Shown: positions 20,323 through 25,830 of the stretch, piece by piece
How the letters are laid out: each line of letters opens with the position of its first letter
How positions within the stretch are numbered: position 1 is the stretch's first letter
The notes under the pieces: model-generated
Databases searched by the model: none
Told to the model about the DNA's origin: nothing
Seen by the model: only the letters and a program-made list of their open reading frames with translations
Origin: a virus
Reading direction: 5' to 3' (one strand)
DNA length: 64,000 bases
IMG/VR virus record: IMGVR_UViG_3300025009_000051
Coordinates: 1-64,000 of that record
Made by a program: the position numbers and the translations under genes

Positions 20323-22342
20323 TTATCCGCACAAGCTGGCCCCGCAATCCAAGCATCTAAGGCAACCGTCTGTATAAATTAAATTTGAACTACCACAATT
20401 CTCGCACGTTTGTCCTTTAGCTTCTACTCCATCTTTAACAAATTTTTTCAATATCCTTATAACTCCTTTTTTCCAAGTTGTCATAATAAATTGTTCATCA
20501 TTTTCAAATTTTAAACTTGCTACCAATTTAATTACATATTCCATTGGATGCCGGTGTCGTAACAATGAACTAATTAATTTAGCCATGTTCCAAGCCTCTC
20601 TATCAAATACTCTATTTAATCCTTGCATTATTACTTCATATCCTTGTTTGTCTTTATAAATGAAGTCATACCTACTTCCATGTCCATTATCTTTAATTTT
20701 TTTAATAATGCCTTCTTCTACATAACCTGGTACATTAAAATCATCTAATTTACCAGTAAAAATTTCATATGGATAAGTTTCTTTTTCTGATTCTTTATAT
20801 ACTCCTATAAATCCAATCCATTGTTCTTTATTATTTTGAAACTGTATAACTTTAGCAACTAATTCAGAAGGTCTTCGTTGAGCATTATTTGTAATAAATT
20901 GCTTTAATTCTGGTTTTTCTGATTCTTTATTTATTAATACTCCAGATCTACTTCCGTCTCGATATATGGTAAATCCTTTACAACCTACTTCCCAGGCTTT
21001 TTTATATAATTCATCTACTGTTTCTACTGTTACATCATTAGGAAGATTATGGGTAACGGATAGGCTATGGGAGACATATCGCTGGATTATTCCTTGCATT
21101 TCTACTTTCTTAATCCAATCTATTTCGTTTGCAGTTGCTTTATAGTATGGTGATTTACTAATAATAAAATCTAAAGTTTTTTCATCTATTGATGTTAAAT
21201 CTGGTTTATAATCTATATCGAACCATTTAGTATTTAATTTAAACCAATTTGAATCATACCATTCAACAAATTTAGGATGAAATACATTATACGTTTCCCA
21301 ATAATCTCCGTTTGCATCTGGCTCCGACGCTCTTGTATCTTTATCGTTTGGATTAATTTTTCTTTTTCTCTTATAAGATATATTAAATGCTGGTTCTAAT
21401 CCTGAAGTTGTTTGTGTCATGAGGGAAACGGAACCTCCAGGAGCTATCGTAGAGATACTAATATTTCTTCTACCATAATATGAATGTAGAGTTTTTAGTT
21501 CTTCATCTAAGCCAAATAAGAAATTCATAAATTCATCATCTTCCTCTAATTCAGGAGTATAATCAGGAAATGCTCCTCTTTCTTTTGCTAATATACAACT
21601 TTGTTTATATTCATTTATTGCTTTTATTTCAAATACTTTTTTTGTAAATTCATTTGCTTCGTCTGTTCCATATCTCAGGTTCATCGCTGCTATCATATCT
21701 CCTAATGCGGTAATTCCTAACCCAGTTCTTCTTGCGTTGAGAGCGTTAGATTTTATTTTTTTCCACAAATTAATTTCTGTTTGTTTTACTATGTCATCCT
21801 CAGGGTCATCTTTTATTTTCTTTAAAATTGAATTTATTTTTTCAATTTCTAAATCTATCACATCATCTAATATTTTTTGTGCATATCCAACATGCAATTT
21901 AAATAAATCGAAATCAAATTTAGAATCATTTTGAAATTTATTAATTACATAATTAAATAAATTTATTGATAATAGAATGCATTCAGAAAAAGGAGACATG
22001 CCAATTTCCTTTTTTTGTTATAAGTATTATTTTAAAAATACTATCTTAAATTTCTTTAAGTGTCGGACTATATCTTCATTTAAAATGTTAAATGCCGGGC
22101 GCTCGTGTTTGGTTTATTGTTAAAACTACTCACCAATTAGTCTCTGAACCTTATTTGATACTATTATGTTTATTCTCAAATTTTGGCTGCTGATTGCCTT
22201 GTATAAAAATATTTAGGTTTCCAGCAATTCACCCGATGTTTTAATTGAGGCAAAATTATCTACCACAATCTACTGATAAAATAGATTTATCAATATAATT
22301 TTTAATTTTCTGCTTTGAGCGTGTTATTTTTTTTATTACCAT
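20323..22342 (-). CDS. nrdJ: Class II ribonucleotide reductase C-terminal half preceded by a 25-aa IntC; join(22342..22262,22008..20323)
   Basis: After intron removal: MVIKKITRSKQKIKNYIDKSILSVD/CGEIGMSPFSECILLSINL...TIAPGGSVS...EGCLRCLDCG, 588 aa. With the 291-aa N-extein this gives an 854-aa NrdJ. Confidence 0.88.
22009..22261 (-). mobile_element. ORF-less group I intron (253 nt) in nrdJ
   Basis: P GAATTGCTGGAAAC (22217-30), Q AATCAGCAGCC (22185-95), R TTCAGAGACTA (22138-48), S AAGATATAGTCC (22065-76). P3 CGGGTG/CGCCCG. P1 exon AUUGUGGU pairs with GCCUCAAU, with U.G at the splice site. Terminal G at 22009. Splicing restores C-G-E-I. Confidence 0.92.
22268..22342 (-). mobile_element. Split intein C-fragment (25 aa, ends ...ILSVD before the +1 Cys)
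   Basis: Sits directly before CGEI; completes the intein whose N-fragment ends without block G at 24436. Confidence 0.75.
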
Positions 22343-23579
22343 AATAGTATTGTTTAAATTGGTTAAAATTATTAAAATATTTATTTATTGTATCTTCACT
22401 AATTCCTAAATTTTTTGGAATTATTTTTTGAGATTTTAATTTCTTAATTTCTATCAAAAATTCCTGCATTTCAATATTTGGATAGTGAGTAAAAATTTGC
22501 GTGCTGGCGTTCACTAATTTATTTTTAAAAACTTTTTTCACCCTTTCTGGAGACATTGTTTTTCTTTTTGTTTTTCCTGTTTGGAGATTATATTTTAAAG
22601 TGCAACCTGAAGAACAAGTTTTTTTATCATTATTTTGTCTATCTTTAAATTCTTTACCGCACATAATACAATTTTTATTTATTATTGGATTTATATTGTT
22701 ATATTTTTCTTGATTCTTTCTACTTCGTTCTTTAGCCTTTTCAGATAATTTTTTAATAATTTCTGGATTATTTTTATAAGTTTCTTTTATTGCGTCGCCA
22801 ATTTTTTTCCTATATAGCGGATCCTCACATCTTTTTTTAGCCTTTTCTCCAATTAATTTTTTTGTCTGTTCACTGCATTTTATACCATACCTTGGATTAT
22901 TTTCTCCTCTGGTATCGATTTGGATTGTAGCAATATTATTCTTCCATTCATTTACATTTTCTTTTATATTTGGATATTGCTTTAAAATATATGCATAACT
23001 TGTTAATATTTCAAATTCGATGTTTAAAGTTTTAAAATATTTTTTAAATATGGTATATTTTTTTAGCAACTCTTTATTTTTTATTTTTCCCGCTTTTATT
23101 TCGTAAATTTTTATTAATTCATTATCTTTATAAATAAAAATGTCCGGTTTATAATTTAATTTATTAACATGATAAATTTCACATTCTGTTTTAATTTTAT
23201 ATTTGGGAGAAGTATATATGTTTAAATAAAAATTTAATAAATGAATATATTCTGCTTGGCTTCTACAAAAATGCTTATTATTGTGTATTGTCAAATAGCC
23301 GGAATATCCTCTACTGTGATTATTTTTATTTATATTTTCATAAATTTTTCTTTGCTTTTCAATTTCAATTATATATTCGCTTTCAATTAAATTTGTCTTC
23401 AATATCCAATACGATTTTGATAATTTTGTATTGGAGGAATTAATAAATTTTATAATTATCTTTGCTTCATTGTCTTCTATTTTATCAAAATTAAAATATT
23501 CTAAAGTCTTTGTTATATGTTTGTCAAATCCAGTTCTTACAGTCAAATTAGATAATTGTTCAAGTTCAATTTTTGTCAT
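22302..23579 (-). CDS. Free-standing homing endonuclease, PD-(D/E)xK (TnsA-N-like) with NUMOD3 and Cys motifs
   Basis: CRSQAE...YKPDIFI...IYEIKAG; GENNPRYGIKCSEQTKKLIG; CIMCGKEF...TCSSGC; own TATATTTAT motif at 23605-23613. Confidence 0.75.
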   Translation of the reverse strand: MTKIELEQLSNLTVRTGFDKHITKTLEYFNFDKIEDNEAKIIIKFINSSNTKLSKSYWILKTNLIESEYIIEIEKQRKIYENINKNNHSRGYSGYLTIHNNKHFCRSQAEYIHLLNFYLNIYTSPKYKIKTECEIYHVNKLNYKPDIFIYKDNELIKIYEIKAGKIKNKELLKKYTIFKKYFKTLNIEFEILTSYAYILKQYPNIKENVNEWKNNIATIQIDTRGENNPRYGIKCSEQTKKLIGEKAKKRCEDPLYRKKIGDAIKETYKNNPEIIKKLSEKAKERSRKNQEKYNNINPIINKNCIMCGKEFKDRQNNDKKTCSSGCTLKYNLQTGKTKRKTMSPERVKKVFKNKLVNASTQIFTHYPNIEMQEFLIEIKKLKSQKIIPKNLGISEDTINKYFNNFNQFKQYYYGNKKNNTLKAEN

Positions 23580-23677
23580 ATATATTTATTTAAAATTATT
23601 ATAAATAAATATATACAAAATACCTTTTTACAGAAATGAAGCTTGTTTTACTTCAGGTTTAATTATTTTTGTAATTT

Positions 23678-24436
23678 TCATAATTCTATAATTTCAATGA
23701 TTTTTATATTTTTTGGGTGTATATTTTCTAAGGTATAATATCCATTTGAAAAATTGGGATCTTTAAATAATCTATCTATCCCATCAGTATTTATTTCATA
23801 TATCACAAATTTATTTTCTTTAACTTTTAGATATTTTTGTATTGGGCGCCCGAGTAATTTTGCATCTTCTATTGTCTTGGAAAAATAAATTCTATCTGGA
23901 TGAGTAGATATTTTATTTTTTGCCTTTGGAGTTAAACCATATTTTTGAATTTTATCTTTGTTATAATAAGGAGAAATATGATATACTTTATTAGGTATAT
24001 CTACTTCTAAATCATATTTAGCTTCTAACACAATTTGAATATAAGAATAGGTATCGACTAATTCTAATATTTGATTTACAATTAATGCGGACCATTTTTT
24101 TCTTTGTACTTTATCTGTAAGGTATATTATTTTTGCGGGAAACCATCCAAGATTATTTATTGTAGATAATATAAGATTAAAATTAGATAAAATAAATTTA
24201 ACATTTTTTTTATTGATTAATAATTCTATAGTATTGTTTTTTTTAGAACAAGATAAATAATTATAAGTAGAATTTAAAATTCTAATACTGGAAGATATAT
24301 CAGTTGTATGAATTAATCCTTCATATAATTTTTGTACTTTATAATCATATTCCATTTCAGATATTAAACTCTCATCTAAGCAGGATCGTTTAAATCTTTT
24401 CAGCCATGATTTAGTAATATTGGTTTGATTTATCAT
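23678..24436 (-). CDS. Tpt1/KptA-like ADP-ribosyltransferase-fold protein (paralog 2), between the nrdJ halves
   Basis: VYHIS....IQKYGLTPK...HPDRIYFS...FKDPNFSNGYYTLENIHP; ATGA overlap with the nrdJ-N stop. Confidence 0.6.
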   Translation of the reverse strand: MINQTNITKSWLKRFKRSCLDESLISEMEYDYKVQKLYEGLIHTTDISSSIRILNSTYNYLSCSKKNNTIELLINKKNVKFILSNFNLILSTINNLGWFPAKIIYLTDKVQRKKWSALIVNQILELVDTYSYIQIVLEAKYDLEVDIPNKVYHISPYYNKDKIQKYGLTPKAKNKISTHPDRIYFSKTIEDAKLLGRPIQKYLKVKENKFVIYEINTDGIDRLFKDPNFSNGYYTLENIHPKNIKIIEIIEL

Positions 24437-25830
24437 ATTAATTCGTGTTTTTCTGTTAATTCATACGCAAATAATTGCCCTTTATCTGTGTTCACTATAT
24501 CAAAATATTTAAATCTAATATTATCATTTATAATAATATCTTCATCTACAATAAATTCTTCTTTATTTAAAATACTAAAAAAATTATAATTGGGAGATGC
24601 AGTTAAATCATATACATCTTCTTTCATATCTGTTTCTATACAATTTAATACTTCTACCAATCCTTCTCCAGATATAATAAATTTACCTATTATATTGTCA
24701 ATTACTACTTCTTCAAAATTTTCATTATAAAATTTATGTTTTGAATTAATTAACATAAATTCACCATTAGAAAATTCAATTTTATACAATTCAGCTTGTT
24801 CTTCTGTTAATAATACATCTTGTAAATCTGAATTATATAATTTACCTTCTTTATCTCTTGTTATTATTTTATAATTGATTTTTTTAAAAGTTTCTAATAA
24901 ATTTTTAATCTTAATCCATCCTAGATTAGTTAATACCAATGTATCTCCAATTACGCAAGGATTTGTGCTTGTGGTTTTATATTGAGGATAACTATCAGAA
25001 GGACTATAATTGACAAGTTTATCCCAAAACAATATTCCTGGTTCTGCACTCTTCCAATTATTTTCTATTAATTTATTCCAAATTTTTCTTGCATCTACTT
25101 CTTTAGTATAAATCGGATTATCTGAATCTATAGGATATTGCTGAGTATAAGTAGTACCATTTATAACCGCATTCATAAATTCATTATCGATTTTAACCGA
25201 AATGTTAGCACCGGTTATTTTATTTGTATCTAATTTTGCATTTATAAAATCTTCTGCATCCATATGTTTAATATGAATTGAAAGCATAAGAGCTCCTCTT
25301 CTTCCATCTTGTGCAACTTCTCTTGTACTATTAGAATATCTTTCCATAAAAGGAACCACTCCTGTAGATGTTAAAGCTGAATTTTTAACAGGTGTACCTT
25401 TTGGTCGTATGTGAGACAAATCATGTCCAACTCCACCTCTTCGTTTCATCAATTGCACTTGTTCTTGATCTGTCATTAATAATCCACCATAACTATCAGC
25501 TTGATTACCTATAACAAAACAATTGCTTAAACTTGTATATTGATTATTATTTCCAACTCCAGACATTGAACCTCCTGCAGGTACTATGTATTTGAATTCT
25601 TTTAATAGTTGATATATTAATTCTTCTGATAATGGATTTTCATATTTTGATTCTATCCTATGTAATTCTTTAGCTAATCTTTTATGCATGTCATCTGGGT
25701 TAGTTTCGAATAAATTTCCTAAACTATCTTTCAAACAATATTTGTTAATCCAGACATTTGTTGCGAGTTCGTCGCCTTTAAAATATTCTAAAGTTTTATT
25801 AAATACTTCTTCTCGAGTATATGATTTCAT
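24433..25830 (-). CDS. nrdJ: Class II ribonucleotide reductase N-terminal half fused to IntN
   Basis: SLSNCFV, MKRRGGVGHDLS, VAQDGRRGALM, GANISV, AEPGILFWD and TSTNP followed by intein CVIGDTLV. Confidence 0.92.
   Translation of the reverse strand: MKSYTREEVFNKTLEYFKGDELATNVWINKYCLKDSLGNLFETNPDDMHKRLAKELHRIESKYENPLSEELIYQLLKEFKYIVPAGGSMSGVGNNNQYTSLSNCFVIGNQADSYGGLLMTDQEQVQLMKRRGGVGHDLSHIRPKGTPVKNSALTSTGVVPFMERYSNSTREVAQDGRRGALMLSIHIKHMDAEDFINAKLDTNKITGANISVKIDNEFMNAVINGTTYTQQYPIDSDNPIYTKEVDARKIWNKLIENNWKSAEPGILFWDKLVNYSPSDSYPQYKTTSTNPCVIGDTLVLTNLGWIKIKNLLETFKKINYKIITRDKEGKLYNSDLQDVLLTEEQAELYKIEFSNGEFMLINSKHKFYNENFEEVVIDNIIGKFIISGEGLVEVLNCIETDMKEDVYDLTASPNYNFFSILNKEEFIVDEDIIINDNIRFKYFDIVNTDKGQLFAYELTEKHELI
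24436..24957 (-). mobile_element. Split intein N-fragment (174 aa)
   Basis: Block A CVIGDTLVLTNLGWIKI, block B-like INSKHKF, block F EDVYDLT..NYNFF; ORF stops without a terminal HN/C. Confidence 0.85.

Follow-up and report, generated by a model that had tools for sequence, protein, structure and literature searches.

A fractured nrdJ gene in a groundwater phage, with a probable natural split intein of 25-residue C-terminal fragment and an adjoining group I intron

The fractured nrdJ gene

The window analysed here is a stretch of 64,000 nucleotides, positions 1 to 64,000 of the IMG/VR virus record IMGVR_UViG_3300025009_000051, a phage from groundwater. On its minus strand it carries nrdJ, the gene for a class II ribonucleotide reductase (RNR), in two halves. 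The first half ends in the N-terminal fragment of an intein (IntN), the second opens with a 25-amino acid (aa) C-terminal fragment (IntC), and the second half is further interrupted by a group I intron. An initial annotation, made from the DNA letters alone, had proposed the split intein, and its claims are taken up below where the results bear on them. The parts of the gene are as follows.

24958-25830, minus strand: nrdJ N-extein, 291 aa, ending TSTNP; Pfam Ribonuc_red_lgN and the start of lgC
24436-24957, minus strand: IntN, 174 aa; blocks A, B and F and a 45-aa tail
22268-22342, minus strand: IntC, 25 aa; a 19-aa leader and block G, SILSVD, with an Asp end
22262-22267, minus strand: first C-extein codons, Cys-Gly, which are also the exon strand of intron P1
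22009-22261, minus strand: group I intron without an open reading frame (ORF), 253 nt; Rfam RF00028, 99.7 bits
20323-22008, minus strand: nrdJ C-extein exon 2, 561 aa and stop, beginning EIGMSPFSEC; Pfam Ribonuc_red_lgC 225-523

The N-terminal half is a single unbroken frame (25830-24433, stop at 24433-24435) that encodes the N-extein and IntN. The N-extein is part of a class II RNR and matches Pfam Ribonuc_red_lgN and the first 213 positions of Ribonuc_red_lgC, and the NrdJ of T. maritima aligns with it as far as ..tNPC322. IntN opens with CVIGDT at 24957, and its Cys1 (24957-24955), which lies directly after TSTNP, is the nucleophile kept in every full-length relative. Block B is N71..H74 (NxxH), with both N71 and H74 invariant in the family, and block F is VYDLTASPNYNFFS, of which D117 and NYNFF are invariant. 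The VYDLTA.PNYNFF stretch aligns with VYD..NHNFFAN of canonical relatives, the His of HNF being replaced by Tyr. The HINT core is complete but for its last strand: no block G follows block F within the 174 residues, and the Pfam match to Intein_splicing is weak. All coordinates and residues that the initial annotation gave for this half (nrdJ-N ending TSTNP/CVIGDT, a 174-aa IntN with block F and lacking block G) were found again, and the canonical relatives that read ..NHNFFANG.LVHN/C fix the block assignment. Its placement of an intein at the thiyl-radical Cys site now has homologues, a HINT-fold model and NrdJ-1 as the closest structure as its basis (see below).

The C-terminal half begins at an ATG at 22342 that starts a 28-codon ORF, consisting of 25 residues to Val-Asp, then Cys-Gly, AGA (Arg) and TAA. 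The terminal Asp codon of IntC is GAT (22270-22268), and the Cys+1 that follows is both the splicing nucleophile and the thiyl-radical Cys of NrdJ. The ORF shares 41 nt, in a different frame, with the end of a 425-aa nuclease ORF, and a run of eight A (approximately 22327-22334) lies inside this overlap. The hidden ATG overlapping the nuclease stop, its 25-aa product ending ...D/CG and their coordinates are thus just as first annotated. The same annotation had placed this CG directly before the C-extein, which is true of the message and not of the DNA, where the 253-nt intron lies between; its splicing scheme, which is supported as far as the predicted protein splicing goes, left out the need for RNA splicing of the intron.

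The group I intron and the reconstructed NrdJ

Rfam RF00028 matches 22271-22044 with 99.7 bits (cut-off 50, E 6.6e-26, model positions 1-253), and this is the sole Rfam match in the window and in the whole 184-kb record. The exon sequence UGUGGU pairs with the intron sequence GCCUCA to form P1, and the 5' splice site is placed after GGT (22262) because the last exon U (22262) is opposite G in that helix. The 3' end of the intron is the terminal G at 22009. Read from the sequence, AAUUUU, just 5' of the guide sequence, can pair with the exon 2 start GAAAUU as P10, and P1 and P10 together restore Cys-Gly|Glu-Ile in frame. Exon 2 starts GAA ATT GGC ATG and is open for 561 codons (22008-20326). 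Since the intron stands behind Cys-Gly, the C-half exists only after RNA splicing. Intein and intron are only six bases apart and occupy the same catalytic motif.

Excision of intein and intron in silico gives an 854-aa NrdJ reading ..STNPCGEIGMSPFSEC.., whose junction, STNPCGEI, is that of uninterrupted NrdJ. This product shares 446 identities with the uninterrupted NrdJ of a 635-kb phage (L003), and the alignment is gap-free at the junction. The catalytic residues of the exteins are intact, namely N, C and E of NPCGE and the Cys 11 residues further, and the gene is the only one for an RNR large subunit in the 184-kb record.

Eighteen related loci yielded no other group I intron in Rfam at the gathering threshold. 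We also note that, over 150 nt, the core of the intron has 69% identity with stretches that carry no annotation, at two places per genome in Flavobacterium psychrophilum phages, a likeness that includes L027:2501-2640 (Flavobacterium phage FPSV-F12) and some crAss-like phages of Bacteroides. This suggests unannotated group I introns in those Flavobacterium and Bacteroides phages and a Bacteroidota host for the phage of the window.

Fidelity of the sequence

Logan contigs from a second sample of the same groundwater study cover 21800-25100 in five pieces with zero differences or gaps; these are contigs, at a depth of about 4-7, rather than raw reads. They match across the GAT codon and the run of eight A, and are gap-free over 22087-22527. 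A miscalled AAT at the terminal codon is very unlikely, because every relative has Asp at that position. The initial annotation had named, as an outcome that would speak against a split, a frameshift or intron fusing the halves into one ORF. Two complete ORFs lie between the halves and relatives have the same layout; no frameshift could fuse them, because 2.1 kb with those two ORFs separates them. One low-depth second-sample contig deviates in the 3' region of the intron, with a base missing at 22061 and a G added behind 22063.

An intein family with a recurrent late split

A phmmer search with the 174-residue IntN against 1.84 billion representative proteins gave 41 hits, 26 of them at E <= 1e-10. 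Of these 26 strong clusters, sixteen stop where the IntN of the window does (..L.E.DE..), eight are inteins in one piece, 159-202 aa long, with a variable 20-70-aa insert followed by ..[IL]L[SN]VD/C, and two are truncated (P0009 was assigned to its class by eye). The insertion point is NP|C of RNR genes throughout. Among the weaker hits, which are ordinary mini-inteins reading ..VYD..NHNFFANG.LVHN/C, several are inserted at NP|C of RNRs. Split and contiguous members of the family share an invariant set of Cys1, His74, Asp117, the terminal Asp and Cys+1. Four assisting positions are fixed in a non-canonical state when compared with the textbook catalytic set (PMC4031507): block B Thr is Asn, block F His is Tyr, the penultimate His is Val and the terminal Asn is Asp.

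Every family member ends in Val-Asp before Cys+1, as against the His-Asn end of class 1 block G. The Asp end makes the intein less canonical but no less an intein, because Asp ends are a known working variant (PMC4031507). The Asp terminus of the initial annotation is borne out here: the residue is invariant in seven IntC pieces and eight contiguous relatives, and the second-sample contigs are identical.

A single-sequence scan of viral contigs with IntN gave no match, so that an alignment-based scan was needed; over viral and metagenome contigs this found 20 loci, some of which are one contig present in both collections. The family motif was not found in 185,579 cellular genomes at the sensitivity of that scan. 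Six distinct split loci (L004, L005, L009, L012, L013 and L018) have a separate IntC directly before C[GSA]E. It is 25 aa long in five of them and 27 aa in L018, and an ATG accordingly stands exactly 25 codons ahead of Cys+1 in the five and 27 codons ahead in L018. Met, Leu, Val, Asp and Cys+1 are invariant among the separate IntC pieces. With counterparts of 25, 25, 25, 25, 25 and 27 aa and the same ending in six other loci, the 25-aa IntC pattern is far beyond chance. A nuclease homologue lies between the halves in L004, L005 and L012, and its stop overlaps the IntC ATG as in the window. The halves of L009 are 92 nt apart and have no nuclease gene between them; since its IntC exists without that gene, the IntC start is independent of it.

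The split lies between blocks F and G, within the family-specific insert. That it falls after block F had been part of the initial annotation and agrees with the canonical relatives, in which the last six IntC residues correspond to block G. In the alignment with contiguous RNR inteins, which the annotation had proposed as a check, the contiguous intein of L015 is collinear with IntN and IntC joined by a few residues. The late split is a conserved state of the family and no one-off. A shared-core tree of 26 rows (the window IntN, 22 family homologues and three canonical outgroups; the fragments P0014, P0022, P0025 and P0026 were left out) separates the Val-Asp family as one clade from the canonical mini-inteins (support 100/99). 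Inside that clade the tree gives no order of split and contiguous forms, and it decides neither way on a single origin of the split.

Two further features of the fragments were considered and rejected. An apparent duplicated segment in the IntN tail and IntC (NYNFFSIL versus NYIDKSIL) was scored as high by 815 of 2000 shuffles, and the charge complementarity of IntN and IntC (-15/+5 in the window) does not extend to relatives, the IntC of L005 being at about +1 and that of L004 at about -1.

One group of loci (L006:9560-9700, and the same in L007, L008, L016 and L023) reads TGA as Trp, so that the GW of block A is G-TGA. The split is the same in these loci; a GIY-YIG-like gene separates the halves, and IntC ends ..STLNVD/CG. 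An extra TAGGA stands after GGT, exactly at the site of the intron in the window, and the frame is broken before GAA ATT CTC ATG; the insert creates AGGAG seven bases ahead of that ATG. It could be a scar of intron loss, the mark of a broken gene or the border of a third gene piece.

Predicted fold and fragment docking

The contiguous relative from L015 (202 aa) is modelled as a HINT domain, with a predicted local distance difference test score (pLDDT) of 80.5 and a predicted template modelling score (pTM) of 0.82. In the PDB it is closest to the split intein NrdJ-1 (E 8.8e-08), and the inteins of DnaB, DnaE and gp41-1 come next; the joining stretch (178-195) is disordered in the model exactly at the split position.

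Modelling of the complex, also proposed in the initial annotation, predicts that the window's IntN and IntC dock: the interaction prediction score from aligned errors (ipSAE) is 0.96 in three runs, and the best of three controls reaches 0.01. Contact agreement is at least 97% and the partner pLDDT is 87. In the model the SILS strand is placed against two stretches of IntN, 125-129 (where block F ends) and 94-98, and is also in contact with IntN 73-77 (with the block B His) and Cys1, and the first ten IntC residues contact IntN 139-145 and the tail at 163-174. Block G is thus predicted to occupy its usual place, with an extra domain built from both fragments, and the model supports fragment binding.

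Proposed mechanism and alternatives

We consider it likely that the nrdJ of this groundwater phage is a fractured gene with a working natural split intein, whose product is reached by two splicing steps. The operon would be transcribed and the group I intron would self-splice from the C-half message. The N-half and the IntC-led C-half would be translated separately, the latter from the ATG at 22342 to give the 25-aa IntC, Cys-Gly-Glu-Ile and 559 further residues. The last six residues of IntC would provide the block G strand that IntN lacks, close to block F, Cys1 and the His of block B. The N-terminal strand of IntC would pair with the tail of IntN and so complete the small extra domain that lies between blocks F and G in this family. 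Splicing would then follow the class 1 steps, with a thioester at Cys1, transfer to Cys+1 and cyclization of the terminal Asp in place of Asn. Ligation of ..TSTNP to CGEIG.. would rebuild the thiyl-radical loop (NPCGE) of the 854-aa enzyme, so that trans-splicing would be obligatory for NrdJ, as the initial annotation had it.

Several points weigh against this. The altered assisting positions may make the chemistry non-standard or slow. An extra passenger gene and an intron are additions peculiar to the window locus, and they give it two more chances to fail. The record is 79% complete, and a second RNR gene may lie elsewhere. Part of the docking score may stem from solved split inteins that the model already knew; its training data include split-intein complexes, none of them split at the block F-G position. 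The 0.96 mark, which 58 of 80 solved complexes attained, as did 2 of 110 mismatched pairs, comes from a calibration that holds only roughly for the small self-made alignments used, and the modelled IntC chain bore two non-native N-terminal residues and the intron-encoded C-terminal Arg.

Three other explanations were weighed. The gene could be decaying, a nuclease and a passenger having invaded a contiguous intein so that the 25-aa ORF is a leftover and no active NrdJ is made. The insertions in the window (passenger ORF and intron) do outnumber those of any relative, and the 5-nt frame break right behind Cys-Gly in the L006 group, which uses code 4, indicates that broken versions may exist. 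We nevertheless regard decay as unlikely: the frames are all open, the catalytic residues of extein and intein are intact, the intron scores as a complete ribozyme and this is the only RNR gene in the record; moreover, 16 of the 26 strong clusters have this same split, and loci with no more than 36-57% identity share both the split point and the 25-aa (once 27-aa) IntC. Even less probable, in our view, is that the intein pieces merely clamp the NrdJ halves together non-covalently, in the manner of the split NrdA of phage Aeh1. RNRs that are split and yet work without ligation are known (Aeh1 NrdA, cited in PMC2677866 and PMC3045599), and the family lacks the usual Thr, both His and the terminal Asn. 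Yet split and contiguous members alike keep Cys1, the His of block B, the Asp of block F, the terminal Asp and Cys+1 without exception, contiguous members must splice to release the enzyme, and some 200 intein residues remaining on the tip of the thiyl-radical loop would be expected to obstruct the active site.

The third explanation concerns only how IntC is made. The 41-nt overlap of two frames contains a run of eight A (approximately 22327-22334), and a frameshift on that run, or a miscount of it, could produce a nuclease-IntC fusion in place of a start at the ATG at 22342. This is the most improbable of the three by our estimate, as the second-sample contigs are identical and gap-free across 22087-22527, the ATG stands 25 codons before Cys+1 in five loci (27 in L018) and the IntC of L009 has no nuclease gene upstream.

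Beyond the working split intein itself, we lean, at somewhat better than even chances, towards a fuller account in which four things hold jointly. The intein lineage would be one normally split between blocks F and G, with its last strand supplied in trans on a 25-residue peptide. The mini-domain formed by IntN tail and IntC leader would have evolved as a clip that makes so late a split workable. An altered catalytic set, Asn/Tyr/Val/Asp, would replace Thr/His/His/Asn. Finally, the five-residue catalytic loop would also be repaired at the RNA level, by a ribozyme six bases off, and the nuclease gene may bring about co-conversion of the three elements as one mobile unit.

Comparison with known systems

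Among the fractured genes described so far, NrdA-1 to -7 and NrdJ-1/-2 have split inteins whose halves are separated by a nuclease gene (Dassa et al. 2009, PMC2677866). The gene in the window shares with them two same-strand RNR ORFs of phage type, an IntN ending the first, an IntC opening the second and a nuclease between. It also shares with the NrdA examples the insertion directly N-terminal to the thiyl-radical Cys; the seven NrdA cases are at the very same insertion point, and NrdJ-1/-2 are one residue later (PMC2677866). NrdJ-1, whose structure is the best structural match to the family, differs in this one-residue displacement and in its Asn end. Its predicted TnsA/Vsr-like core and NUMOD3 may set the nuclease of the window apart from the Vsr-like family of Dassa et al. 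(2009). A further difference is in the position of the split, which in genes of the Dassa type is at the endonuclease-insertion site between blocks B and F, whereas in the window it is between F and G. The IntN of natural split inteins is described as measuring about 100 aa and the IntC, in which blocks F and G stand together, about 35-40 aa (PMC10189870); here block F is in IntN and IntC is 25 aa.

Atypical natural splits are known in AceL-TerL, GOS-TerL, VidaL and PolB16 OarG, which have a short IntN of 15-37 aa (PMC10189870, PMC11766414). They share with the window a natural split away from the endonuclease-insertion site and one very short fragment; that fragment is IntN in those inteins and IntC here, a mirror image. 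Split inteins engineered with a C-proximal ('S11') cut and DnaE variants with a short IntC (PMC2664965; review, PMC11766414) are alike in the short piece: in them, too, only the last strand or strands are in trans and IntC is within reach of peptide synthesis. Those cuts are man-made, in contiguous or canonically split inteins, whereas the split of the window is natural, recurrent and accompanied by the putative clip of IntN tail and IntC leader.

The RIR1 intein of Carboxydothermus hydrogenoformans (Chy RIR1) was reportedly recognized by Amitai, Dassa and Pietrokovski in 2004 as an Asp-terminated RNR intein. Compared by description, it shares with the intein of the window the RNR host and a C-terminal Asp for Asn, but it is contiguous and the latter is split. 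Chy RIR1 is named in PMC3653736, and Asp and Gln ends are known to cyclize in some inteins (PMC4031507). The RNR gene bnrdE of phage SPbeta is known to contain both an intron and an intein (Lazarevic et al. 1998; Derbyshire and Belfort 1998, both as cited in PMC3653736). The elements of the window differ from those of bnrdE in being six bases apart in the same motif, in that the intein is split and in that the intron is in the IntC-half message. In the open-access literature searched, there was no account of a natural split that recurs between blocks F and G within an insert peculiar to a family, nor of a group I intron only six bases from a split intein in a single catalytic motif.

The joining of proteins is a standard use of split inteins, and according to the open-access papers an IntC short enough to be synthesized has so far been obtained only by engineering. 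The short IntC could be a useful ligation tool, as the initial annotation had suggested: if the proposed mechanism is true, a natural 25-residue IntC, consisting of last strand and clip, would come ready-evolved for fragment association. The family also offers many natural sequences in which to study an Asp-driven last splicing step that proceeds without the penultimate His. For phage biology, this is an essential gene that is heavily colonized and yet kept, with a split intein, a nuclease, a passenger and a ribozyme in or beside one catalytic loop.

Genes between the halves

Two genes separate IntN from IntC.

23678-24436, minus strand: passenger ORF, 252 aa, whose start overlaps the IntN stop (ATGA)
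22302-23579, minus strand: free-standing nuclease gene (putative), 425 aa; PD-(D/E)xK-type core, NUMOD3 and a four-Cys cluster

The 425-aa protein is read, from its sequence and a structural model, as a putative free-standing homing nuclease of PD-(D/E)xK type. Its orthologues in L004, L005 and L012 are 32-44% identical. E110, YKPD at 143-146, E160 and K162 are invariant in all four members, as are four Cys; NUMOD3 is found in all four and HSDR_N_2 in one. The model is of low confidence (pLDDT 56.5), with a core closest to TnsA (Z 8.1, root mean square deviation 4.3, 127 aligned residues); it also matches Vsr (Z 5.5) and the catalytic domain of I-Bth0305I (Z 5.3), values that are within the range of common arrangements. 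The C-terminal 80 residues are helix-turn-helix-like in the same low-confidence model. A sequence search of the PDB with the nuclease profile gave no match. The nuclease gene is likely to be the homing engine of the locus, and its insertion is likely to have caused the split.

The 252-aa ORF is treated as a passenger. No ORF stands between IntN and the nuclease gene in the related split loci read through (L004, L005, L009 and L012). It is a paralogue of a 229-aa ORF at 20025-19336 (39% identity, E 2e-38) and has no family match in Pfam or PHROG. The two paralogues have weak structural leads only, to RNA 2'-phosphotransferase (Tpt1; template modelling scores 0.44/0.50) and to a PARP-bearing cluster.

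Other inteins in related RNR genes

The RNR gene of L009 (L009:8635-10287) is apparently split twice: its 316-aa C-half ORF ends IntN-like, and the next ORF opens with a canonical IntC-like stretch (..TYDIEVNKSH..). In P0003, P0008 and P0015, which host the intein of this family, another intein, large and with an endonuclease, precedes it in the same RNR and ends ..HNC. Since several intein-hosting RNRs have a second intein, multiple intein sites per gene are common in this group. A different fractured nrdJ is present in L002:2437-6608 (LR756500.1, a 462-kb uncultured phage), where NPCGEI is whole and a canonical split intein lies at ..APTG/C; a 376-aa nuclease-like ORF separates its halves, and its IntC, about 48 aa long, ends SHN/T. 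Just upstream of that gene is a 647-aa, repeat-rich nuclease-like ORF.

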